Of a stretch of 64,000 bases of DNA, positions 8,712-59,330 are shown one piece after another. Positions within the stretch are counted from its first letter, which is position 1. Each line of letters opens with the position of its first letter. Below the pieces are notes generated by a model. The model worked only from the letters and a program-made list of their open reading frames with translations. It was not told the origin of the DNA and ran no database searches. A program made the translations under genes and the position numbers. The DNA is from an uncultured Ruminococcus sp. GTDB taxonomy: Bacteria > Bacillota > Clostridia > Oscillospirales > CAG-382. The stretch spans positions 5,660-69,659 of the forward strand of contig CAYOCM010000001.1 of assembly GCA_964402515.1 (NCBI GenBank), in the 5' to 3' direction.

Positions 8712-9710
8712 TTATTCGCTCGGAGTATTCGATAACATATTTTCGATAAATATGCCGTATCCGCGTGTCGAATCTCCGACAAGCACATGAGTAACCGCAC
8801 CCACAAGTTTGCCGTCTTGAATTATAGGGCTGCCGGACATACCCTGCACTATGCCGCCCGCACGCTCGATAAGTTTTTTATCGGTAACGTGCAGTATGAG
8901 ATTTTTGGTGTTTGAGCCGCTGTCAAGCTCTTGTATCTCAATCTCATAACTTTGCACCCCGTCGCTGCCGAGCGTGGTCAGTATCTGTGCTTTACCCACT
9001 TTGGCGTGAGCGGTAGTCATCGCCTGACTCAATCCCGACGGAAAACGGTAATATCCGCCGTAAACGCCCGTTTCGGTATTGGCAAACAGAGTACCCTTGC
9101 GCACAGAACCGAAAACGCCCTGCAACTCACCCGGTGAATTTCGTTTGCCTTTGACTACGCCGGTTATATCGACATCTACCACGGTGCCTTCGGAAAGCGG
9201 CAGGAGCGTGCCTGTTTCACTGTCGCATATTCCGTGACCGAGACCCGCAAAAGTTCCGTCGGCAAGCACATAAGTCACGGTGCCGATACCCGCCGCCGAA
9301 TCGCGAACATACATACCGAGCCTTGCCGTGCCGCTTTCAAGATCTGTCGCGGGGGTTATTTTTGTTTTAAAGCTATCTTCGCCACGTGTGATCTCAAGCG
9401 TCATACTGTGATTGCCGTTTTCTGAGATCTGCCTTAAAAATCCGTCCGAAGATATAACCTCGCTGCCGTTTACCGCCGTAATGATATCGCCCGATTTAAT
9501 ACCCGCATCGGCTGCCGGCGAGACCAGTCCCGATGCCGTTTCGACCGCAGTTATACCCACGACCAATGCGCCTTTGGTAAAAAACTTAATACCAAAAGCC
9601 GTGCCTCCCGCATATACTCGCTCACCCAAAGCCGATGTCGGCAACGCAAATGTCGCAAGCAAAACAGCGGTCAGCAATAATGTCAATAATCTTTTTGACC
9701 TGATGCTCAT
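8712..9710 (-). CDS. spoIVB: SpoIVB peptidase (S55 serine protease with PDZ domain)
   Basis: N-terminal TM/signal segment, a PDZ-like GIKSGDIITAVNG, and the catalytic-region strings GLGHGICD and GIVQGMSGSPIIQDGKLVGAVTHVLV. The start could be ATG 9710 (AGGTGG upstream) or ATG 9737. Confidence 0.85.
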   Translation of the reverse strand: MSIRSKRLLTLLLTAVLLATFALPTSALGERVYAGGTAFGIKFFTKGALVVGITAVETASGLVSPAADAGIKSGDIITAVNGSEVISSDGFLRQISENGNHSMTLEITRGEDSFKTKITPATDLESGTARLGMYVRDSAAGIGTVTYVLADGTFAGLGHGICDSETGTLLPLSEGTVVDVDITGVVKGKRNSPGELQGVFGSVRKGTLFANTETGVYGGYYRFPSGLSQAMTTAHAKVGKAQILTTLGSDGVQSYEIEIQELDSGSNTKNLILHVTDKKLIERAGGIVQGMSGSPIIQDGKLVGAVTHVLVGDSTRGYGIFIENMLSNTPSE

Positions 9711-9863
9711 ATCCCACCTGATTTTTTGTTTTTGCATCGCTGATAATGTTTGTTGAATTAACCCTTATTATACTGTCAATTTTTTATTTCCCAAAAGCAT
9801 ATCCGCGCCATGTGCGGGCAAAAATAATAAACGGCTTAATATCAATCGGAGAGGTGCAGTTTT

Positions 9864-22485: not shown

Positions 22486-25400
22486 TTGTCAAACAATTAT
22501 AAATCATTGCAGAAAACCAAAAACATCACGACGGCAGTGTTGCTTATTCTGTGCCTTATGCTCAGCATAGTGCTGCTTTATATAATCCAATCCGAACTCG
22601 ACGGAGACGAGATATACTCGGGCGAATATAAAGTTCGTATAACAGAGATATGCTCGTCGAACAATTCAATCGATTATGACAAAAACGGCGATTTCAGCGA
22701 TTATATAGAGCTTTATAACTACGGCGAAACGTTTAATCTCAAAGATTTTGCGCTTACGATAAGCACAAAACGCAAAGGACAGTATACGTTCGGCGACACT
22801 ATCTTTGAATCGGGCACATATATGGTGCTGTGGCTTAACGGTGACGATGTGCCGTTTAAATTGGCGGCAAGCGGCGGCGAAACGGTATCGCTGCTTTCTC
22901 CCGACACAAAAACCGTATGTTCGGCAACAACAGAATCGCTCGAACCCGATCAGGTCATGCTGTGGTCCGAAAACGGCTATACCCTGTCGTTTGAAGCGTC
23001 TCCCGGATTCGCAAACACCGCAGAGGGCGTAGAACTGTTTCGCAAGGGCACTCCGATGGCGCAGGATAAAATAGTCATCAACGAACTTTTTATTGCCAAC
23101 AAATCGGCAATGCCCGACTTTGACGGCGAATTTTGCGATATAATAGAGCTTAAAAACATTTCAAACGAGGCAATATCGCTTGGCGATTGGTATATATCCG
23201 ATTCGTTTGACCGCAAAAGCCGAGTAAAGTTGCCCGATACGGTATTGCAGCCCGGCGAAATCAAACTGATATATGCATCGGGCAAAGACACGGTTACAGA
23301 CAGCGGCGAGTTTCACACCGATTTCAGAATATCACTCGGCGAAACGGTATATTTGTTTTATCAAAACACTTATGCAGAACTCGAGACTGCTGAATGTGAC
23401 GCAAATTATTCGCTGTCGCGTGACGGCAGCGGCAAATATACGGTGATGATTGCCACGCCCGGATTTGAAAACACCGATGAAGGATACGACGCTTTTTGCA
23501 CGTCAAGGCTTGACAACGAGTCCTCTATCGTTATAAGCGAATTGCTTTTAAAGGCAGACTTGACATCCTACGGCGGAGCGCTGCGCGACGTTGTCGAGTT
23601 GCACAACACCACGGGCACCGCAATATCGTTAAAGGGTTGGTATATTTCGGACGATCCCGACGAGCCGTATAAATACGCATTTTCGGATGTTACGGTCGAT
23701 GCGGGCGGATATTATTTGATATATTGCGAAAACAGTGCAAAAGGCAGCTCAACCGGATTTGCGCTTTCATCCGACGAATACGTATATCTTACAACTCCCG
23801 AACACAAGCAGACGGCGGCAATACCCTGCGTTTCGGCAGGCCGCGGAAAATCAAGGTCTTTGAGCGACGACGGCAGCTATTATGACGGCGAAATATCGCT
23901 CGGATATTCAAATGACGATAACGGCATTGCTCTTTACGCCAAATCGGTCAGGCCGCAGACGGTAGAAATAAGCGAAGCTGTATCACTGAATTCAAAATAT
24001 CTCGCGGGGCCTTATGGCACTTATAACGATTTTTGCGAGCTGCACAACTTAACCGATCACGATATCACGCTTGACGGTTGGTATCTGTCGGATAACCCCA
24101 AAAAGCCCAAAAAAGCAAGCCTTGACGGCATAACGATTAAAGCAGGCGAATATCTGTGCATTATTCTGTCAAAGAACGGGCTTAACATCAAATCCGGATA
24201 TAACTCGGTAGCGCTTTCGCTTTCATACGAAGGTGAAACTCTTTGTCTGTCAAACGGCGATGTTATAGTCGATTGCATGGCAATGCCGATGCTTGCCGAA
24301 AACACGTCATACGGCAGGCCCGCCGGCAAAGACGGTTTTGATATACTTGCCGAGCCTACGCCCGATAAGAGCAATTCCGACGCTTCGTTAAAGACCACCC
24401 CCACCCCGACGGCTTCGATAGAGCAAGGTGTTTATGACGGCTCAAAAACGCTTTATCTCGAGCTTTTGGGCGAAGGCAAGATATACTATACACTCGATTG
24501 CACCGAGCCGACGACAAATTCGACACCTTATACCGCGCCGATCGAAATAAGCAAGACCACTATAATACGCTGTATAGCGGTCGCGGAGGGATGCAAAGCA
24601 AGCGAAATCAAAAGCCTGTCGTATATAGTCGGTGAAGGCGATACGCTTGAGGCTGTTTCGCTTGTGTGCGATCCCGACGATCTGTTTGATTATTACACGG
24701 GCATATACGCAACCGGTCCCAATGCCAGTTCGACATATCCTTATGTCGGCGCAAATTATTGGAAACGTTGGGAACGTTACTGCACGGTCAGCTTTTTCGG
24801 CAACGACCTGACTTTTTCGGAAAACGCCGGACTCAGAATATTCGGCGGTTGGTCGCGAGCCGAAAACAAAAAATCGCTTGCGGTATTTTTCAGAGCAAAA
24901 TACGGTTGCAGTTCGTTAAACGTTCAATTGTTTGAAGATTCTGACCTTTGCTGCTATGAATCGTTTATTTTGCGCAATACGGGACAGGATGTCGGCAGAT
25001 GTTGGATGCGTGACGCTTTATTAACCAAGATCGCCGGCAAATATCTAAGCCTTGATTATCAAAACAACCGACCCGTAGTATTGTATTTGAACGGAGAATT
25101 TTGGGGGCTTTATTATATTCGTGAAAAAGCCAACGAAAATTTTATTGCGGGACATCAAAACACCACCGCAGACAGCGTTCAACTGACAAACGGCAACGGC
25201 AACTCAAACAGCGAATACAAAGCATTGATAGCTTATGTAAAAAGCCACGACCTTTCGGTTAGGGAATATTATGACTATGTTTGTTCGCAGGTAGATATAG
25301 ACAATTATATCGACTATATAATTGCCGAAATGATCATAGCAAATACCGACAACGGCAACATTAAGTTTTATAAAATAGACGGTGGCAAATGGAGATGGAT

Positions 25401-25815
25401 AATATACGACGTGGACCAATCGACATACAGCCCCGACTATAACACCGTAAAAGAGCATTTAAACCCCAACGGCACCGGCGCGGCGGATATGTTTTCAACA
25501 GCACTGATAAACGGACTGCTGAATAACAAAGAGTTTCGAGACAAGTTTTTGACGCGGTTTGCTTATCAGCTGAATGAGGTATGGACACCCGAGAGAATGA
25601 ACGCAGAGATAGATCGCTATTATTCTCTTATTAAAGATGCCCTGCCGAAAGAAAGCGCCAAATGGGGCAGATCGATAAAGTATATCGATACAAACATTAA
25701 TCGCCTGCGCACGTTTTTTAACGAGCGCAATAAAAAAATCGTGCCTATGATACAAGCACAATTCGGTCTTTCGGACAGCGAAATGCTGTCATACGGCTTT
25801 AATACGGAGGGCTGA
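22486..25815 (+). CDS. Membrane-anchored CotH-family (atypical kinase) protein with four lamin-tail-like (LTD) modules and an Fn3-associated module
   Basis: 1109 aa with a TTG start and an N-terminal TM helix TAVLLILCLMLSIVLLYII. Four modules share an ITE/INE/ISE start, then D(Y/I/V)(I/V)EL(Y/K/H)N, then GWY(I/L)SD. The module YYTLDCTEPTTNSTPYTAPIEI follows. C-terminal CotH-like strings are FILRNTGQD, LNGEFWGLYYIREK and DNGNIKFYK...WRWIIYDVDQS. Confidence 0.8.
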   Translation: MSNNYKSLQKTKNITTAVLLILCLMLSIVLLYIIQSELDGDEIYSGEYKVRITEICSSNNSIDYDKNGDFSDYIELYNYGETFNLKDFALTISTKRKGQYTFGDTIFESGTYMVLWLNGDDVPFKLAASGGETVSLLSPDTKTVCSATTESLEPDQVMLWSENGYTLSFEASPGFANTAEGVELFRKGTPMAQDKIVINELFIANKSAMPDFDGEFCDIIELKNISNEAISLGDWYISDSFDRKSRVKLPDTVLQPGEIKLIYASGKDTVTDSGEFHTDFRISLGETVYLFYQNTYAELETAECDANYSLSRDGSGKYTVMIATPGFENTDEGYDAFCTSRLDNESSIVISELLLKADLTSYGGALRDVVELHNTTGTAISLKGWYISDDPDEPYKYAFSDVTVDAGGYYLIYCENSAKGSSTGFALSSDEYVYLTTPEHKQTAAIPCVSAGRGKSRSLSDDGSYYDGEISLGYSNDDNGIALYAKSVRPQTVEISEAVSLNSKYLAGPYGTYNDFCELHNLTDHDITLDGWYLSDNPKKPKKASLDGITIKAGEYLCIILSKNGLNIKSGYNSVALSLSYEGETLCLSNGDVIVDCMAMPMLAENTSYGRPAGKDGFDILAEPTPDKSNSDASLKTTPTPTASIEQGVYDGSKTLYLELLGEGKIYYTLDCTEPTTNSTPYTAPIEISKTTIIRCIAVAEGCKASEIKSLSYIVGEGDTLEAVSLVCDPDDLFDYYTGIYATGPNASSTYPYVGANYWKRWERYCTVSFFGNDLTFSENAGLRIFGGWSRAENKKSLAVFFRAKYGCSSLNVQLFEDSDLCCYESFILRNTGQDVGRCWMRDALLTKIAGKYLSLDYQNNRPVVLYLNGEFWGLYYIREKANENFIAGHQNTTADSVQLTNGNGNSNSEYKALIAYVKSHDLSVREYYDYVCSQVDIDNYIDYIIAEMIIANTDNGNIKFYKIDGGKWRWIIYDVDQSTYSPDYNTVKEHLNPNGTGAADMFSTALINGLLNNKEFRDKFLTRFAYQLNEVWTPERMNAEIDRYYSLIKDALPKESAKWGRSIKYIDTNINRLRTFFNERNKKIVPMIQAQFGLSDSEMLSYGFNTEG

Positions 25816-40455: not shown

Positions 40456-40486
40456 AAAAGGTCTGCCGAACAGGCAGACCTTTTTA
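40456..40486. terminator. Bidirectional terminator
   Basis: AAAA, then GGTCTGCC-gaaca-GGCAGACC, then TTTTT, between convergent genes. Confidence 0.8.
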
Positions 40487-40504: not shown

Positions 40505-40924
40505 TTATGTTGTTGAATTCTTCTCTGTTGTCCACGTTGTACCGTTAAATGTTGCGGTGTAGCCTTTATCCGTGTCGGTATAGGAGAAGGATGTGAATGT
40601 TCCATTGGATACATTATATTCAAAATATTTAGGGTCAGTATCATATTTTACATCATTACCTTTTACATTATCAATAGTCATTTTATTGATCTCTTTAGTT
40701 GTCGTTTGTGTATTATCGTTTCCGTCAAGTTTGCCGTCGGAAAGATCAAGCGCATATGCTTCTTTATAAAGTGCTGCGGCAACCTGCTGTACGGCAGATG
40801 CATTGGCTTTTTCGATAACGTTGCTGAATGTGGGAATCATCACCGCGGCAAGAATAGCAATTACGGCGATGACGATAACGAGCTCTACTATGGTAAAGCC
40901 CTTTTTGTTTGTGATTTTTTTCAT
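40505..40924 (-). CDS. Type IV pilin / pseudopilin-like protein (prepilin N-terminal cleavage/methylation domain)
   Basis: The N-terminus MKKITNKKG|FTIVELVIVIAVIAILAAVMIPTF has a short basic leader, Gly at -1, Phe at +1 and Glu at +5. AAGGAG RBS. The coding sequence is visibly AT-rich. Confidence 0.85.
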   Translation of the reverse strand: MKKITNKKGFTIVELVIVIAVIAILAAVMIPTFSNVIEKANASAVQQVAAALYKEAYALDLSDGKLDGNDNTQTTTKEINKMTIDNVKGNDVKYDTDPKYFEYNVSNGTFTSFSYTDTDKGYTATFNGTTWTTEKNSTT

Positions 40925-41148
40925 GAGTCGCTCCTTAAAAAAATGTTTTTTATGTCTGAATTAAATTTTGGACGCGCGCCGACGGTAACCGAGCCGCCCT
41001 TCGCACGCCTTTTGACGACCGGTTAAAAACCCGCGGTGCCGCATTTAAAGCACACGTGCCTCGCAAACACGTTTGCAACCCGAACTCAACAAACAGGCTG
41101 CGGCTCCGCCGGTAACGCCGCCTAATATACTATTAGGCGTACGTTTAT
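40925..41148 (-). promoter_or_regulatory. Long 5' leader (about 220 nt) of the pilin gene with a GC-rich core; candidate cis-regulatory RNA
   Basis: Spans the distance from the predicted TSS (just downstream of the -10 at 41155-41160) to ATG 40924. The core 40971-41120 is 93/150 = 62% G+C by hand count, next to an AT-rich gene. It contains complementary segments, for example GGAGCCGC (41103-41110) and GCGGCTC(G) (40991-40998). Confidence 0.4.
41119..41142. repeat. Palindromic site A (CGCCTAATA-TAC-TATTAGGCG + TAC) at about +6 to +30 of the pilin promoter
   Basis: 9-3-9 palindrome. These 24 nt are the exact reverse complement of 41245-41268. Confidence 0.8.
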
Positions 41149-41154
41149 GGTGTG

Positions 41155-41183
41155 ATTATACCCTTTTTATACCGTTTTGTCAA
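41155..41183 (-). promoter_or_regulatory. Perfect-consensus sigma-A promoter of the pilin gene
   Basis: Minus strand reads TTGACA, a 17-nt spacer, then TATAAT. Confidence 0.65.
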
Positions 41184-41244
41184 GTAGTTTTACGATAAAA
41201 AATGAACTTTTTATGTGTTAAAATGTTTCGGGCACTAACAAAAT

Positions 41245-41271
41245 GTACGCCTAATAGTATATTAGGCGTAC
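41245..41271. repeat. Palindromic site B (GTACGCCTAATA-GTA-TATTAGGCGTAC), perfect 12-3-12, about 110 bp upstream of the predicted TSS
   Basis: A perfect 27-bp palindrome, the inverted copy of site A. It lies next to the terminator of the upstream NUDIX gene. Confidence 0.8.
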
Positions 41272-41302
41272 AAAAAGACCGTCTTCGCAGACGGTCTTTT
41301 TG
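41272..41302. terminator. Terminator after the NUDIX gene (bidirectional shape)
   Basis: AAAAA, then GACCGTC-ttcgca-GACGGTC, then TTTTT. Confidence 0.8.
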
Positions 41303-41324: not shown

Positions 41325-41843
41325 TCAGTTATAAACGTCGATGCCTATTGAGGCATAATATTCGCCGAAATCGCGCACCTGTGACTTTATGCATTCATCG
41401 GATGTGATAAACTTTGCAAAATTGTCAAAATCAAGCCAACGGTATTCAACCGTTTCTCCCTCTTGCAAAACCACGGCGTCTTTGTCGCAATCGGTAATGC
41501 CGAGATAGGTATAATATATCGTCTGTTTGGGGTGCGAAACGACTGTTTTTAAAAATATCAGTTCGCACGGGGTTATGCCCGTTTCTTCAAACAGTTCGCG
41601 GCGCATACCTTCATCGGGTGTTTCGCCCTTTAGCATAGAACCGCCCGCGGTTGCCTCAAAATATCCGGGATATGCATCTTTTGTATAATCGCGCCGCATA
41701 AGCAGATAACTGCCGTCAATATGTTTGACAAGCACGGCACAGACGCCGTGATATATTCCGCCCGGAATAGGTTCGTCACGCACAAGGTCGATGCCCACTT
41801 TTGTTCCGTCGGCATTTAAGCCGTCCCATATCTCGCGTTTCAT
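41325..41843 (-). CDS. NUDIX hydrolase
   Basis: Nudix box GGSMLKGETPDEGMRRELFEETGI. ATG 41843 is preceded by AAAGGA. Confidence 0.8.
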   Translation of the reverse strand: MKREIWDGLNADGTKVGIDLVRDEPIPGGIYHGVCAVLVKHIDGSYLLMRRDYTKDAYPGYFEATAGGSMLKGETPDEGMRRELFEETGITPCELIFLKTVVSHPKQTIYYTYLGITDCDKDAVVLQEGETVEYRWLDFDNFAKFITSDECIKSQVRDFGEYYASIGIDVYN

Positions 41844-41863
41844 AAACATCCTTTCGCAAAATG

Positions 41864-42940
41864 TCAATCAAAATATCCGAGGCGATAAAGCAATTCGGCA
41901 GTCAAAACACCGCCGCCCGCCGCTCCGCGCAATGTGTTGTGTGACAGACAGACAAATTTATAATCAAATATCCTATCGGGCCTGAGTCTGCCGACGGTAA
42001 TGCCCATTCCGCCGTAAATGTCGCGGTCAAGGCCCGTCTGCGGTCTGTCGGGCTCGTCGATATATGTAACAAATTGCTTTGGTGCGTGCGGCAATTGCAA
42101 TTGCTGCGGCAATGACGAATAATCATGCCAACGTTGCAATATTTCATCACTTGAGGGTTTGTTTTTAAACTTTACAAACACCGATGCAAGATGTCCGTCG
42201 GAAACAGGCACTCTGATACACTGCGCGCTTATTATAGGCTCGTCGGCATTTATTATCTTGCCGTCTTTTACATCGCCCCATATTTTAAGAGGTTCGTTTT
42301 CGCTTTTTTCTTCTTCGCCGCCTATATACGGAATAACGTTATCGCTTATCTCGGGAAACGAGTCGAAAGTCTTGCCCGCACCGGATATCGCCTGCATGGT
42401 GGTTACGCTTACCGATTCGATACCGAAATCAAAAAGCGGAGTCAGCGCGGGAACATAGCTTTGTATAGAACAGTTGGGTTTGGTAACGATAAATCCGCGC
42501 GAGGTGCCGAGGCGTTTTTTTTGCGCATCGATAACCGACAGATGATTTGAATTGATTTCCGGAATTATCATTGGCACGTCGGGCACGGCACGATTTGCCG
42601 AGTTGTTAGAGATAACGGGAAGCTCGGCGACCGCATAGGCTTGTTCAAGCGCCTTTATCTCGTCTTTGGGCATATTTACGGCGCAAAACACGATGTCGGC
42701 GTTTGACTTTATCGTCTGTATATTCGACGCATCGATAACGGTCATATCTTTGGCATATTCGGGGCAATCGGCAGACAGTTTCCACCTGCCCGCAAGTGCG
42801 TCGCTGTATTTTTTGCCTGCCGACGATGCACTGGCGGCAAGCACGGTAACATCAAAATACGGGTGATCATTTAGCAGAGTAAGCAATCTTTGGCCGACCA
42901 TGCCGGTAGCGCCGACGACCGCAACACGCTTTTTGAGCAT
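41864..42940 (-). CDS. asd: Aspartate-semialdehyde dehydrogenase
   Basis: N-terminus VAVVGATGMVGQ, the active-site Cys context KPNCSIQ, and the C-terminal SHNTLRGAAGG. Confidence 0.9.
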   Translation of the reverse strand: MLKKRVAVVGATGMVGQRLLTLLNDHPYFDVTVLAASASSAGKKYSDALAGRWKLSADCPEYAKDMTVIDASNIQTIKSNADIVFCAVNMPKDEIKALEQAYAVAELPVISNNSANRAVPDVPMIIPEINSNHLSVIDAQKKRLGTSRGFIVTKPNCSIQSYVPALTPLFDFGIESVSVTTMQAISGAGKTFDSFPEISDNVIPYIGGEEEKSENEPLKIWGDVKDGKIINADEPIISAQCIRVPVSDGHLASVFVKFKNKPSSDEILQRWHDYSSLPQQLQLPHAPKQFVTYIDEPDRPQTGLDRDIYGGMGITVGRLRPDRIFDYKFVCLSHNTLRGAAGGGVLTAELLYRLGYFD

Positions 42941-43517: not shown

Positions 43518-45113
43518 TTATTTGGAAACGATGCCCGAAACGTTTGATACGTTAGAGGTATCCGATGTATCGCTGTCGGGAGTATAGACCTTAAGGCCGT
43601 TGAAGGTTGCGTTTTTATAATAATCCGAATATTTGGTTTCTTTATCGTCGCTGTCTTTAAAGGTTATCGACTCTAATTTGTTGTCGGTCAATTTAACGGT
43701 TGCTTTAAAGTCGTCGACGGTCCAGCATTTTTCAAGTCCGGTAAGGTCGGTGATCTCGTTGTCCGAAAGGTCGAGCGAGGTGAGTTTGTTGAGTCCGGTA
43801 ACGGCGTCGACGATATCTTTTATCTTGTTATCTCCGAGATCGATAGAGGTAGCCTCGGTAAGCGATTTGATGGCGGTTATATCGACTATCTCGTTGCAGC
43901 AAGCGTCAAGCGTGGTAAGTTTTGTGCAGGCTGCAATAGCGCTGATATCGGTTATCTTGTTCTCCGAGATATTAAGGGAGGTAAGCGCGGTGCAATTTTT
44001 AAGCGCAGAGATGTCGGTGAGTTCGCAATCGGAAGCATCGAGAGTTTCGAGTTTGGTCATACCCGACAGTGCGTCAAGCGAGGTGATCTTGGTTCCGTAA
44101 AGGTAAAGCGATTCAAGAGCTACTGACGAGCTTATAGCCGAGATGTCGGCGAGGTCTTCGTTGCCGCTGACGTCAAGAGTGGTAAGGTTTTTAAGGCCCT
44201 GCAAACCGTCAAGCGAAACGAGTTTGTTGCTCGAGAGCGAGAGTTTTTCAAGCGAAGTGAGCGAAGAAACGGTAGTGAGATCTTCTATATCGTTTGACGA
44301 TGTGTCAAGTGTCTTGAGCGATTCGAGCGACGAAAGCGCCGAAAGATCACTGATGCCGAGACCGCCCATCATTAAAGTTTCGAGTTTTGAAGATTTTTCG
44401 ATGCCTTCAAGCGAAGCGACGCTTGTGTTGACGATGTCAAGACTGGTAAGATTTTCAAAAGCATCGAGGCCTTTGAGCGATGCAAGGTCGGTATATTCAA
44501 GCGCGAGAACCTCAAGTTTGGTAAGGTTCTTGATAACATCAAGGGTTTTGAGACCGGTGAGTTTCATGCTCTTTACGACATCGTCAAAGCTGACGCCCGA
44601 AGAACTGCCGTAGATCTGTGCATAAAGGCTTGAAATATATGCGTTATAATTCATTTGGTAAATATTGGATGCGTCAAAAGCCGAGAGATAACGCAGGTTT
44701 TTGAACAATGCAAGATCGTTTACATCGTCAAGAATGCATATGGCCGCGATATAGTCGGTGCCCTCTTTGGGTTCATAATCTTCGGTATCGCCCGAGATAA
44801 TTTTGTCGGTATAATCTTTGTATCCGAGAACGACGACGGGATAAGCGTTTGTGGTCTTATTGTCGCTTGACATGCTGATATCGCAATAATATACAAGGCT
44901 TTCGAATTTATCAAGCATTGACTGGTCGATATCGCAAGCGTGGCAGCCGAGCGACGAGGCTATTGCCTGCGCAAAAAGCTGATCGCCGAAAAGCGAGTTT
45001 GTGGAAAAATACTTGTTAAGTGCAACGGCAACTATGCCCGCAACAAGTGCGATGCAGAGCACAAGCGCTATTATAAAATTGCGCATTGCCGTTTTGCGAT
45101 TATAAATGCTCAT
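43518..45113 (-). CDS. Membrane-anchored leucine-rich-repeat (internalin-like) surface protein
   Basis: N-terminal TM helix FIIALVLCIALVAGIVAVAL, then about 14 tandem 22-aa LRR units such as LxxLxxLDxSxNxIxDIxxL. Confidence 0.85.
   Translation of the reverse strand: MSIYNRKTAMRNFIIALVLCIALVAGIVAVALNKYFSTNSLFGDQLFAQAIASSLGCHACDIDQSMLDKFESLVYYCDISMSSDNKTTNAYPVVVLGYKDYTDKIISGDTEDYEPKEGTDYIAAICILDDVNDLALFKNLRYLSAFDASNIYQMNYNAYISSLYAQIYGSSSGVSFDDVVKSMKLTGLKTLDVIKNLTKLEVLALEYTDLASLKGLDAFENLTSLDIVNTSVASLEGIEKSSKLETLMMGGLGISDLSALSSLESLKTLDTSSNDIEDLTTVSSLTSLEKLSLSSNKLVSLDGLQGLKNLTTLDVSGNEDLADISAISSSVALESLYLYGTKITSLDALSGMTKLETLDASDCELTDISALKNCTALTSLNISENKITDISAIAACTKLTTLDACCNEIVDITAIKSLTEATSIDLGDNKIKDIVDAVTGLNKLTSLDLSDNEITDLTGLEKCWTVDDFKATVKLTDNKLESITFKDSDDKETKYSDYYKNATFNGLKVYTPDSDTSDTSNVSNVSGIVSK
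43628..44561 (-). repeat. Tandem 66-nt (22-aa) LRR coding repeats inside the LRR gene
   Basis: Repeated units such as LTSLDIVNTSVASLEGIEKSSK, LETLMMGGLGISDLSALSSLES and LKTLDTSSNDIEDLTTVSSLTS. Boundaries are approximate. Confidence 0.7.
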
Positions 45114-56761: not shown

Positions 56762-57661
56762 TTAATTGTTTGATTTTGAAAACAAGATGTTTTTAAAGTG
56801 CATTTCAAGCGTATAAGGCAATTCTGAAATAAATTTTACATTATAGCCGCGTAATACCGCGAGGAGTTTTGCCGTGTCCTGCGCTTTGATGCGTATAGTG
56901 AGTTGATTATACTGAGGTTGCAAACGTATTATCTCAAAATCTTCTTTTAAAAAATGTATATAATCGTCCGGCGAATCAAATTCTGTTTTAAAATCTTTGA
57001 CGGCACGATTTCTTATCGTATTCATATCGCAGATATCCACGATTTTTCCGTCATTGATAAGCGCAACTTTGTCGCAGGTTTTTTCGAGCTCATCAAAACT
57101 GTGACTGCTCATAAATACAGTTTTGCCTTTTTTGTGTTCTTCTTTGATAATATCCAAAAACGTAGCTCGCATAAGCGGATCCAATCCCGTTGTCGGTTCA
57201 TCGAGAATGATGATCGGGGCGTCGTTCATAAGCGCGGCAACAAGCGCCGTTTTTTGTTTCATGCCCTTACTCATACGTTTTAGATTTGCGCGAGGATCAA
57301 GCTGCAGTCTTTCGATAAGTTCGTTTGCATAAGACATATCGCGCAGTCCAAAAAAGTCGGCTTGACATTTTAAAAAATCAATGCCGGTTTTTAAATCGGG
57401 AAAAGCGATTTCACCGGGAACATAACCGATTTTTTTAACTATCTCGCTTGAGTGCTCCCACGATGACAGTCCGTCAACAAGCACCGTGCCGGATGTGGCT
57501 CTTAAAAAACCCATAATATGTCTTATGGTAGTTGTCTTTCCGCTGCCGTTTGTGCCGACATATCCCACCATTTCACCGTTGCCGACAGATAAGTCGAGCC
57601 CGAATATTCCGCGGCCGTTGCCGTAATCTTTGGTTAATTTATTAATTTCTATAACATTCAC
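56762..57661 (-). CDS. ABC transporter ATP-binding protein (second NBD)
   Basis: GTNGSGKTT, MSKGMKQKTALVAAL, IIILDEPTTGLD and SSHSF. Confidence 0.85.
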   Translation of the reverse strand: MNVIEINKLTKDYGNGRGIFGLDLSVGNGEMVGYVGTNGSGKTTTIRHIMGFLRATSGTVLVDGLSSWEHSSEIVKKIGYVPGEIAFPDLKTGIDFLKCQADFFGLRDMSYANELIERLQLDPRANLKRMSKGMKQKTALVAALMNDAPIIILDEPTTGLDPLMRATFLDIIKEEHKKGKTVFMSSHSFDELEKTCDKVALINDGKIVDICDMNTIRNRAVKDFKTEFDSPDDYIHFLKEDFEIIRLQPQYNQLTIRIKAQDTAKLLAVLRGYNVKFISELPYTLEMHFKNILFSKSNN

Positions 57662-58620
57662 GACAGCGCACCTCCGAAATCTTTGTCTTCTTTATAAAAT
57701 TTCATAAAGTAATCTTCAAGCGTTTCTTTTCTGTTGCTGAAAGACAAGACACCGAACGACGGTAAAACTTTGATAAGCATATTAAGGTCTTTGTCGTCGA
57801 TCGAAATATAAACATCTTTTTTATCGTCGATAATTAAGGCAAACGAATCTATCTGCGTCGCTTTTGACAAAAATTGCTTTTTTGTATCTGCCGAATCGAA
57901 CACTACGGTATAATATTTAAGCGAAGCGTGCTTTAAATCGTCAGCGATGAATTCGGATACTATTCTGCCGTCTTTGATAATGGCTATTCTATCGCAAGTC
58001 GAGTCTATCTCGGAAAAAATATGGCTTGACAGCAAAACGGTCTTGCCGCGCTGTTTTTCTTTATGGATAAACCGAATAAAATTTTCTTGCATAACGGGAT
58101 CCAATCCGCTTGTCGGCTCATCCAAAATCAAAACATCGGGATCGGACATAAAAGCCGTAACCACTGCAAGTTTGCGTTTTACGCCCAAACTCATTCGTTT
58201 GGTCTCGCCGGTCAAAACATTATCTCTCAGTTCAAACAAGTCGAGCATTTCGTTTAGTCGGTCATCGTTATGAATTTTTTGCATGCTTTGCATCATCCGT
58301 ATAAATTCCCAACCGGTCAACCCGGCAGGCAAAGCTATCTCACCCGGTATATATCCGACTTGATTTAAAACTTTATCATAGTTTTTAAAAGTTTCGATAC
58401 CCAATATTTTTGTACTGCCCGAATCGGGTTTTGAAAACCCCATTAAGTGCCTGATGGTAGTCGATTTACCCGCGCCGTTAGGGCCCAAAAAGCCGAATAC
58501 CTCCCCTTTTTTTACATGGATATTGACATCAAAAACGCCTCTGCCGCAACCGTAGTCTTTTGTCAAATCAGTCGTTTCGATTACATATTGCGATTCGGTT
58601 TTTAAAACCGTTTTATTCAA
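57658..58620 (-). CDS. ABC transporter ATP-binding protein (first NBD)
   Basis: TTG start with a GGAGGTG RBS. GPNGAGKST, MSLGVKRKLAVVTAF, LILDEPTSGLD and SSHIF. ATGA-type 4-nt overlap with the next NBD gene. Confidence 0.85.
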   Translation of the reverse strand: MNKTVLKTESQYVIETTDLTKDYGCGRGVFDVNIHVKKGEVFGFLGPNGAGKSTTIRHLMGFSKPDSGSTKILGIETFKNYDKVLNQVGYIPGEIALPAGLTGWEFIRMMQSMQKIHNDDRLNEMLDLFELRDNVLTGETKRMSLGVKRKLAVVTAFMSDPDVLILDEPTSGLDPVMQENFIRFIHKEKQRGKTVLLSSHIFSEIDSTCDRIAIIKDGRIVSEFIADDLKHASLKYYTVVFDSADTKKQFLSKATQIDSFALIIDDKKDVYISIDDKDLNMLIKVLPSFGVLSFSNRKETLEDYFMKFYKEDKDFGGALS

Positions 58621-58644
58621 GTAAATACACCTCCGTAAACAGTG

Positions 58645-58673
58645 TTGACATTTTGACTGTGTTATAGTATAAT
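58645..58673 (+). promoter_or_regulatory. Perfect-consensus sigma-A promoter upstream of the TetR gene
   Basis: TTGACA, a 17-nt spacer, then TATAAT, 88 nt upstream of ATG 58761. A perfect 10-bp palindrome ACAATATTGT (58726-58735) lies between the promoter and the start codon. Confidence 0.55.
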
Positions 58674-58760
58674 TGTTTTGAGGTAAAAACGAAAGTACAA
58701 AAACATCGGCATTGATAATATATAAACAATATTGTCGGTTGTGTTTACGGTTTTAAAAGT

Positions 58761-59330
58761 ATGAAAGCAAAAGATCTGAATAATTCATCTAAAAAAACAA
58801 AACGTTTGATTAAAAAAGTGTTTGCCGAAATGCTGTCGGAAAAACAAAATCTGTCGTCCATATCGGTAAGCGAACTGTGCAGCCGAGCGGAACTCAGCAG
58901 AGGTGCGTTTTATTCGCACTATGACGATATCTATGATGTTGCCGAAGAATACGAAAACGAACTTTTTGACGCTTTTTTTGACAAAGCAAGGCTTATATCA
59001 TCGCAAAGCATCATGCAGTTTATAGATTCTGTTTTTGAATATATAAGACAAAACGACGAGAATTACCGTTTGCTGTGCAAATCGAACGAAAGCATTTTTG
59101 CGGCAAAAAAGCTGTCATCCATAGTTTTCAAAAAATTGGCGGAAATATGCCTTGCCGACAGCCGTATAAAAAGCGATCAATATATGGAACTGGAAATTCA
59201 AATATTTTTAGAGGGGTTACTTTGCGAATATATGAAATATTGCCGTGGTCTTTCATCAACGACATTGGATGATCTGTATGCATATACAAAATATTGGGTA
59301 AATAATTTTATTTCTCGCAGAACGGTTTAG
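58761..59330 (+). CDS. TetR/AcrR-family transcriptional regulator
   Basis: N-terminal HTH region SISVSELCSRAELSRGAFYSHYDDIYD; 189 aa. Confidence 0.85.
   Translation: MKAKDLNNSSKKTKRLIKKVFAEMLSEKQNLSSISVSELCSRAELSRGAFYSHYDDIYDVAEEYENELFDAFFDKARLISSQSIMQFIDSVFEYIRQNDENYRLLCKSNESIFAAKKLSSIVFKKLAEICLADSRIKSDQYMELEIQIFLEGLLCEYMKYCRGLSSTTLDDLYAYTKYWVNNFISRRTV

Follow-up and report, generated by a model that had tools for sequence, protein, structure and literature searches.

What does a perfect promoter gain from being enclosed by two inverted copies of one palindrome? This question is raised by the element at positions 41119-41271 of a 64-kb stretch of DNA from an uncultured Ruminococcus sp. (contig CAYOCM010000001.1; the whole 64,000-nucleotide (nt) stretch is hereafter called the window), which lies upstream of a minus-strand gene for a 139-amino-acid (aa) pilin-like protein. 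An earlier note on this DNA had taken the palindromes for operators from which a repressor, acting by DNA looping or as a roadblock, keeps the pilin gene tightly off. We conclude instead, with a probability of roughly 0.8, that the element is an invertible promoter (inverton), a phase-variation switch captured here in its ON orientation.

The anatomy of the element is simple. The promoter-distal inverted repeat (IR-B; 41241..41271), a predicted recombination site, contains the 27-nt palindrome GTACGCCTAATA-GTA-TATTAGGCGTAC at 41245-41271, in which two 12-nt arms flank a 3-nt centre without mismatch. The promoter-proximal repeat on the gene side (IR-A; 41119..41146), likewise a predicted recombination site, carries CGCCTAATATACTATTAGGCGTAC at 41119-41142, that is, CGCCTAATA-TAC-TATTAGGCG-TAC, the reverse complement of 41245-41268 over 24 nt. 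A repeat search extended the match to 28 nt at 96% (27 of 28), with arms at 41119-41146 and 41241-41268 and 94 nt between them. The two cores, CGCCTAATA-TAC-TATTAGGCG at 41119-41139 and CGCCTAATA-GTA-TATTAGGCG at 41248-41268, have 0 mismatches, start 129 bp apart and have centres that are reverse complements of each other. Between the 24-nt repeats lies a 102-bp, promoter-bearing segment (41143..41244) that is predicted to be invertible and to be ON as assembled. Its sigma-70-type promoter, TTGACA-17-TATAAT on the minus strand (41155..41183; -35 at 41183-41178, -10 at 41160-41155), matches the consensus in silico at 12/12 positions and faces the pilin-like gene; no comparable promoter was found on the opposite strand of the segment at the scan threshold. 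Counted from the predicted transcription start site (TSS) at ~41148, site A (in IR-A) would span about +7 to +30, with the centre of site B (in IR-B) at about -110. The promoter, the palindromes and their spacing are thus as the earlier note had described them, and its remark that the window holds no further copy of the palindrome was borne out: the core pattern, with up to 3 mismatches, occurred in only 2 places in 64 kb against 0.03 expected, and 0 of 100 shuffles reached 2. The perfect promoter pattern occurred twice in the window against 0.04 expected. Chance is excluded as the source of the paired cores and the perfect promoter.

The motif belongs to a family that spans many genomes. Scanning one genome per species with the pattern CGCCTAATANNNTATTAGGCG (18 specified bases) yielded 34 loci. 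With partner sites accepted at up to 3 mismatches, CGCCTAATA-N3-TATTAGGCG formed at least 24 site pairs spaced 129-225 bp apart, and nearly all matches in Clostridia were paired. The centres of 24 pairs fell into ten triplet classes (TAC, TAT, TAG, GGT, AGA, TCA, ACA, TGC, CGT and AAA); additional loci contributed TGG/CCA, GCA/TGC and GTA/TAC pairs, giving 11 classes overall with TGG. Although the triplet varied between loci, the two triplets within every pair were reverse complements. A 3-nt centre is never its own reverse complement, and because the arms are symmetric the centre alone gives a site its direction. The rule therefore means that the sites are always in inverted orientation and that their centres must match, as strand exchange requires. 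It is not explained by a symmetric repressor dimer, which needs no such agreement between two centres that vary across 11 classes. Other features would suit a dimeric repressor that blocks the strong promoter by looping, or as a roadblock at +7 to +30: each site is an operator-sized perfect palindrome, one placed at about -110 and the other at +7 to +30, and many family spacings (138, 147-149, 157-159, 169-170 and 180 bp) lie near whole helical turns, which would suit looping and equally suits synapsis. The window's own spacing of 129 bp corresponds to ~12.3 turns and would leave the two sites out of phase.

Matches without a partner were of another kind. Those in Oleispira, Oceanihabitans and marine metagenomes were lone terminator-like hairpins with AT-only centres, and the general pattern in metagenome_contigs found mostly unrelated single hairpins of marine samples, plus two family loci (L050 and L053). 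The motif was present at the P0123 and P0219 loci, in one orientation each; the P0234 loci had a different repeat in a single orientation, and the motif was not found in the P0004 and P0024 pilin clusters. Beyond the window, copies of the motif are dispersed, yet within the Clostridia family they occur as pairs around a promoter beside gene 5′ ends, unlike the repetitive extragenic palindrome scattered regardless of promoters that the earlier note had named as its refutation.

Alignment of the family in promoter orientation revealed a common layout, consisting of the distal repeat, an AT-rich stretch, ‘ctaTTGACA’-17-‘TAnAAT’, 15-25 nt and the proximal repeat. All 21 interiors aligned with that of the window, whose promoter fell on the family block; 20 of the 21 had one near-consensus promoter 15-25 nt from one repeat, and L029 had no match at the threshold used. 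The repeats of the window are perfect over 24 nt, whereas many family pairs have 1-3 mismatches. Relative to the sole gene with its 5′ end at the element, the promoter was ON in 4 of 21 loci (the window, L006, L007 and L034) and OFF in 17 of 21; these counts, like those for the flanks below, include paralogues and are descriptive rather than independent trials. For L003-type loci, the state was read from the promoter whose homologues occur in the other family members. Pointing away from the gene in 17 of 21 loci is not expected of a fixed promoter, and a repressor would have a fixed promoter to act on. The flanks differed as well: after the palindrome, the non-gene side was T-rich in 19 of 21 loci, forming a terminator-like hairpin with a U-run, whereas the gene side was not T-rich. 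In the window, a canonical terminator (41271-41302) occupies the place of the T-rich flank.

The decisive evidence is an inversion observed at a single family member. In ten contigs from different samples (L059-L068), the recombinase (P0229) is identical and so are both flanks of the element; the 123-bp interior in L060, L061, L063 and L068 is the exact reverse complement of that in L059, L062 and L064. Contigs L065-L067 end exactly at the inner repeat edge, the assembly break expected where two paths diverge. The window motif is present at these loci in diverged form, as the repeats CATCGAATAGTATAATAGGCGTA and TACGCCTATTATACTATTTGGCG; of the two, the right one (CGCCTATTATACTATTTGGCGTAC) agrees with IR-A of the window at 22/24 positions and shares its GTA/TAC centre. 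Paralogues within one metagenome-assembled genome (MAG) show a similar relationship. The 159-bp elements of L007 and L021 are 100% identical on opposite strands, with flanks that match on the same strand at 77%, and comparison of L007 with L033 again gave an opposite-strand element, 99.4% identical, and same-strand flanks. Several further MAG contigs end at or inside sites (L012, L015/L019, L016 and L022). Interiors inverted between identical flanks (L059-L068), and those of L007 against L021 and L033, are at odds with a repressor on a static template.

These inversions also bear on the idea that the element is a mobile promoter cassette, similar to a miniature inverted-repeat transposable element, whose palindromes are terminal inverted repeats and which was inserted before genes in either orientation. 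Such a cassette would account for terminal inverted repeats around a short non-coding piece, for the many copies in one MAG (L003, L007, L011, L021, L023, L033 and L034) and for the frequency with which contigs break at the sites. It would not account for the flip in L059-L068, which is exact, leaves the junctions unchanged and occurred within one species. Target-site duplications were not seen at the window or the aligned loci, viral contigs had 0 matches to the motif, and interiors differ between genomes except for the promoter. In the multi-copy MAG, moreover, homology runs past the repeats into the leader and pilin N terminus and for ~110 nt on the other side, so that the duplicated unit is the gene locus, not a cassette. 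We regard a mobile cassette as extremely improbable.

Some family members lie beside a candidate enzyme. In L006, L014, L020 and L050, a gene for a tyrosine recombinase of 305-317 aa (Phage_integrase plus a SAM-like N domain) has its 3′ end <100 bp from the element, and the order recombinase, switch, target repeats in the P0229, P0123 and P0219 loci. Identity among the L006, L014, L020 and L050 enzymes is 47-58%, and the L014, L020 and L050 translations show the LRIGE arginine, HxLRHT and the C-terminal Y. NCBIfam models placed the recombinases with tyrosine recombinases of the Xer-like and integron types, at scores under every equivalog cut-off, and the family numbers >7600 proteins at E <= 1e-30. 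That the recurrent neighbour is a tyrosine recombinase rather than a helix-turn-helix (HTH) regulator again argues against a repressor, which we now consider very unlikely. Part of the earlier proposal survives: the palindromes are almost certainly sites for a dimer-binding protein, as predicted, and their control of the pilin promoter and the DNA looping needed to bring them together stand as well. Static repression by looping or roadblock does not: the centre-triplet rule, the promoter orientations, the flips and the recombinase neighbour argue against it. The inverted arrangement of the sites had been seen in that reading, from which the conclusion of inversion was missing.

Most family switches have no adjacent recombinase (for example, L003, L004, L007, L010, L017 and L031), which fits a trans-acting master enzyme, as RecV in Clostridioides difficile (PMC7446863, PMC9286219). 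For the window, the enzyme would be expected elsewhere in the genome, as an orthologue of the ~305-317-aa Phage_integrase-family protein that lies beside switches in other Clostridia.

Several observations weigh against an active invertible promoter in the window. No recombinase Pfam domain was found among the 50 window open reading frames (ORFs) scanned, and a tblastn search of the window with four family recombinases found nothing. The flipped state would create the junction GGTAACGC-IR-ACATTTTGTTAG, and this pattern had 0 matches in metagenome_contigs; an exact-protein look-up of the window pilin, its NUDIX neighbour and P0001 gave no match in the contig index. At 102 bp, the interior is the shortest of the family (others have >=117 bp between cores), which could hinder synapsis. 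Orientation itself may be an imperfect guide to expression, as the L003-type loci, all from one MAG, have a second, weaker promoter-like match facing the opposite way, so that ‘OFF’ there need not mean silent. Finally, the nearest pilin homologue on a long contig (L079; 62% identity) has a fixed promoter without repeats, and the switch is therefore not obligatory for this pilin gene family but a modular addition. The lack of a recombinase in 64 kb, of a flipped copy in metagenome_contigs and of a longer interior would equally fit a fossil or locked switch, the descendant of an inverton that lost its recombinase and now serves as a constitutive strong promoter with a 5′ hairpin. Disused sites should decay, as in pairs with 2-4 mismatches, whereas the window repeats are perfect over 24 nt and match at 27/28 positions when extended; the absence of an adjacent recombinase is, in addition, shared by most family switches. 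We consider a fossil unlikely.

We propose the following mechanism for the invertible promoter. Each palindrome would be a simple lox-like core site in which two symmetric arms of 9-12 bp each bind one recombinase monomer, and the short asymmetric centre between them would be the place of strand exchange that sets the direction of the site. With the sites inverted, recombination would flip the 102-bp segment and its perfect sigma-70 promoter. When ON, transcription would start at ~41148 and proceed through IR-A, which would form a 5′ hairpin, and the 194-nt leader into the 139-aa pilin-like gene; read-through from the upstream NUDIX gene would be stopped by the terminator of that gene and then by the IR-B hairpin with its UUUUGUU. 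When OFF, the promoter would face IR-B, and its transcripts would run directly into the bidirectional terminator at 41271-41302 and stop there. The pilin gene would be left without a promoter and shielded from upstream read-through by the terminator and the IR-B hairpin.

These roles draw on predicted RNA structures. In the predicted mRNA, IR-A folds into a 5′ hairpin of -16.1 kcal/mol (z = -4.35), in line with the alternative suggestion of the earlier note that site A acts as a stem-loop at the 5′ end. The minus-strand IR-B hairpin (-18 kcal/mol) is followed by TTTTGTT and was flagged as terminator-like. The bidirectional intrinsic terminator AAAAAGACCGTCT-tcgc-AGACGGTCTTTTT (41271..41302), with 14-nt perfect arms, starts directly after the palindrome and ends the upstream NUDIX gene; it folds into two adjacent hairpins followed by UUUUUG (-34.6 kcal/mol, z = -8.7). 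Could RNA structure alone explain the palindromes, with site B as an additional terminator or an insulator downstream of the NUDIX gene, site A as an mRNA-stabilizing 5′ stem-loop and their likeness incidental? Both sites do fold strongly (-16 to -18 kcal/mol, z = -4.4 to -6.9), site B has its T-run on the minus strand and T-runs in the family flanks are orientation-dependent. A purely RNA-level role, however, leaves unexplained the recurrence of 18 bases across genomes, the pairing, the centre-triplet rule, the inversions and the recombinase linkage, and there is scarcely any likelihood that it is the whole answer. The hairpin effects are better seen as secondary uses of recombination sites.

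The gene under the control of the putative switch (40505..40924, minus strand) encodes a 139-aa prepilin-type protein (MKKITNKKGFTIVELVIVIAVIAILAAV...; Pfam N_methyl PF07963, E = 8e-7) with >5000 homologues. Its N-terminal motif KKGFTIVELVIVIAVIAILAAV is a prepilin cleavage/methylation signal, G-F-T-x-x-E, followed by a hydrophobic helix, and the protein scored 27.0 bits against a 16.3-bit cut-off for NCBIfam IV_pilin_GFxxxE (TIGR02532). No pilus assembly genes (PilB/PilC/PilD-type) were found among the 50 window ORFs scanned against Pfam; such genes may be present in another part of the genome. A GC-rich, 194-nt 5′ leader (40925..41118, minus strand) separates IR-A from the start codon; its fold (z = -2.2) owes part of its stability to the IR hairpin. 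A riboswitch reading of the leader is unsupported: an Rfam search of the leader and region gave only sub-threshold chance matches of the miRNA/RNAI type to the long hairpin, and four related loci gave no match. A homologous leader precedes the 62%-identical pilin in L079 (2290-2500), with common blocks tttgcgagg.ac, caaaaggcg..cga.gg and aaggagcgac, and the leader may be a conserved cis-regulatory one, to judge by these blocks. The upstream NUDIX hydrolase gene (41325..41867, minus strand; Pfam NUDIX, E = 1e-14) lies outside the switch with its 3′ end toward it. Downstream, a bidirectional terminator at 40456..40484 is common to the pilin-like gene and a convergent plus-strand Gfo/Idh/MocA oxidoreductase gene.

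Across the family, the target genes are mostly of the surface type. Pilin-like proteins with an N_methyl domain, of 139-1019 aa, follow the switches of the window, L003, L006, L007, L017, L021, L023, L033 and L034, and Flg_new or lipobox lipoproteins those of L004, L010, L013, L014, L024, L025, L030 and L031; other targets are a small membrane protein (L019) and a helicase-like protein (L050). Surface proteins are typical targets of phase variation. The switch-controlled gene of L050 (3927-6911), which encodes a 994-aa helicase-like protein with a GSGKS motif, is not a surface protein gene and may represent a phase-variable defence or restriction function. Two tandem switches lie 111 bp apart in L018 (3302-3740) with different centres (TAC/GTA and TCA/TGA), a difference that may keep adjacent switches from recombining together.

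Site number and locus structure vary in other ways. In L089-L092 (for example, L090 2466-2550), the recombinase-side site is repeated directly in tandem, in 2 or 3 copies spaced at a 32-bp period (cgtctaataTGGtaatagacg), and copy number varies between samples with an identical recombinase; L006 (2597-2648) has one extra degenerate site copy 31 bp upstream. The paralogous pilin-like loci of the Lachnospiraceae MAG CAZHPZ01 (L003, L007, L017, L021 and L033) are mosaics. L003 and L017 share 224-nt leaders that are 100% identical and have different switch interiors and protein bodies, and L007 and L033 share an identical gene-side flank and have diverged far-side flanks. This pattern suggests exchange or gene conversion among switches with the same TAT/ATA centre.

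A broader picture can be drawn from these features, which as a joint proposal we regard as possible but somewhat doubtful. The palindromes would be minimal lox-like sites for a compact, ~310-aa tyrosine recombinase, and the freely variable, asymmetric 3-nt centre would act as a compatibility code, such that partners need complementary centres and neighbours differ, as in L018. In the RNA, the palindrome would have two further uses, terminating transcription intrinsically on the non-gene side and forming a stabilizing 5′ hairpin on the gene side. A single recombinase could in that case govern, across the whole genome of uncultured gut Clostridia, a repertoire of surface antigens (pilin-like proteins and lipoproteins) that is biased toward OFF, and the combination of a short site, a small enzyme and segments down to 102 bp would make the system a candidate orthogonal recombinase tool.

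Elsewhere in the window, the sole other perfect TTGACA-17-TATAAT (58645-58673, plus strand) is likewise enclosed by a perfect 12-nt inverted repeat, TTTTAAAACCGT / ACGGTTTTAAAA (58600-58611 / 58747-58758; 135 nt apart). This element (58600-58758) sits between a divergent ABC-transporter operon (57658-58620, minus strand) and an ORF without a Pfam match (58761-59330, plus strand), and may be another inverton, with repeats of a different class. Surface-type genes near the switch encode a 531-aa leucine-rich-repeat protein (43518-45113) and a 1109-aa CotH/lamin-tail-domain protein (22486-25815), and SpoIVB (8712-9737) indicates a spore-forming Clostridia host. Among the pilin homologues, P0111 was set aside, as it lies beside a truncated integrase in an apparent mobile element and the palindrome motif is absent. 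At its loci (L035-L044), this distant, 116-aa homologue is 36 bp downstream of a 283-aa integrase-like gene, whose product is ~30% identical to the switch recombinases and whose neighbours are HTH and Zn_ribbon_recom.

Invertible promoters are a well-established kind of element; the details that may be new are the lox-like perfect palindromes, the centre-triplet rule and the orientation-dependent terminator flank. For annotation, the pilin-like gene would not be one held off by a repressor but probably one that is heritably and reversibly ON or OFF in subpopulations, of which the assembly shows one state. In the gut microbiome, the family points to a large, uncharacterized set of switches that act on pilin-like proteins and lipoproteins of uncultured Clostridia, a group whose phase variation has received far less study than that of Bacteroides. 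Mechanistically, covariation of the centre triplets places the crossover region from sequence alone, and contig breaks at switch sites are a practical warning for MAG assembly.

Inverton catalogues, including PhaseFinder and DeepInverton (PMC11892184, PMC11602134), record further examples. Inverton group 139 of the hCom2 gut community, linked statistically to a nearby tyrosine-type recombinase/integrase (invertase group 35), has 33 members, among them Clostridium sp. D5 3525576-3525832 and Intestinimonas butyriciproducens DSM 26588 1750639-1750893, and 32 of the 33 are from Clostridia. Its repeats are ~14-26 bp and its interiors ~200-230 bp long, and orientation shifts were seen experimentally over passages (PMC11892184). 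The window family resembles this description, although the interiors of group 139 are longer than that of the window; the supplement text of that study contained no string matching the window motif (PMC11892184), and searchable literature returned only unrelated primer sequences for it. In C. difficile, the tyrosine recombinase RecV, encoded away from its targets, inverts the flgB, cwpV, cmrRST and pdcB switches, which are short and intergenic and control surface and motility traits (PMC7446863, PMC9286219). The window family shares with them the class Clostridia and, in its orientation-dependent hairpin and U-run, a feature comparable to their post-initiation regulation by Rho or terminators. 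It differs in that the repeat sequences are unrelated and some C. difficile switches have no promoter inside. To our knowledge, the C. difficile switch repeats are also not self-palindromic.

Switches outside the Clostridia provide further parallels. fimS of Escherichia coli is a 314-bp segment with 9-bp non-palindromic repeats that depends on IHF and Lrp and has its recombinase genes adjacent. Like fimS with FimB/FimE, the window element is a short invertible segment, as we read it, with the promoter of a pilus or fimbrial subunit, inverted repeats, a tyrosine recombinase and ON/OFF phase variation. In contrast to fimS, it has 21-27-bp perfect palindromes with a 3-nt asymmetric centre as sites, an interior of 102 bp and no recombinase gene within the 64 kb, and its target gene encodes a type IV-style prepilin instead of a fimbrial subunit of the chaperone-usher kind. 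Mpi of Bacteroides fragilis is a serine recombinase that controls polysaccharide promoters. Phylum, repeat consensus and promoter type differ, yet the proposed system resembles the invertons of Mpi and PhaseFinder, in which one recombinase serves many promoter invertons with a common repeat consensus before surface-structure loci in gut bacteria. The sites themselves are most readily compared with loxP and FRT, which have 13-bp arms and an 8-bp spacer and function in plasmid or phage maintenance, not in promoter switching. Only 3 central bases are free in the window family, unlike in loxP and FRT, and the true overlap may be ~7 bp, TA-NNN-TA. As with Cre/loxP and FLP/FRT, there are two symmetric recombinase-binding arms (here predicted) around a short asymmetric spacer that alone sets direction and must match its partner, no accessory sites are evident, and an inverted pair of sites leads to inversion.

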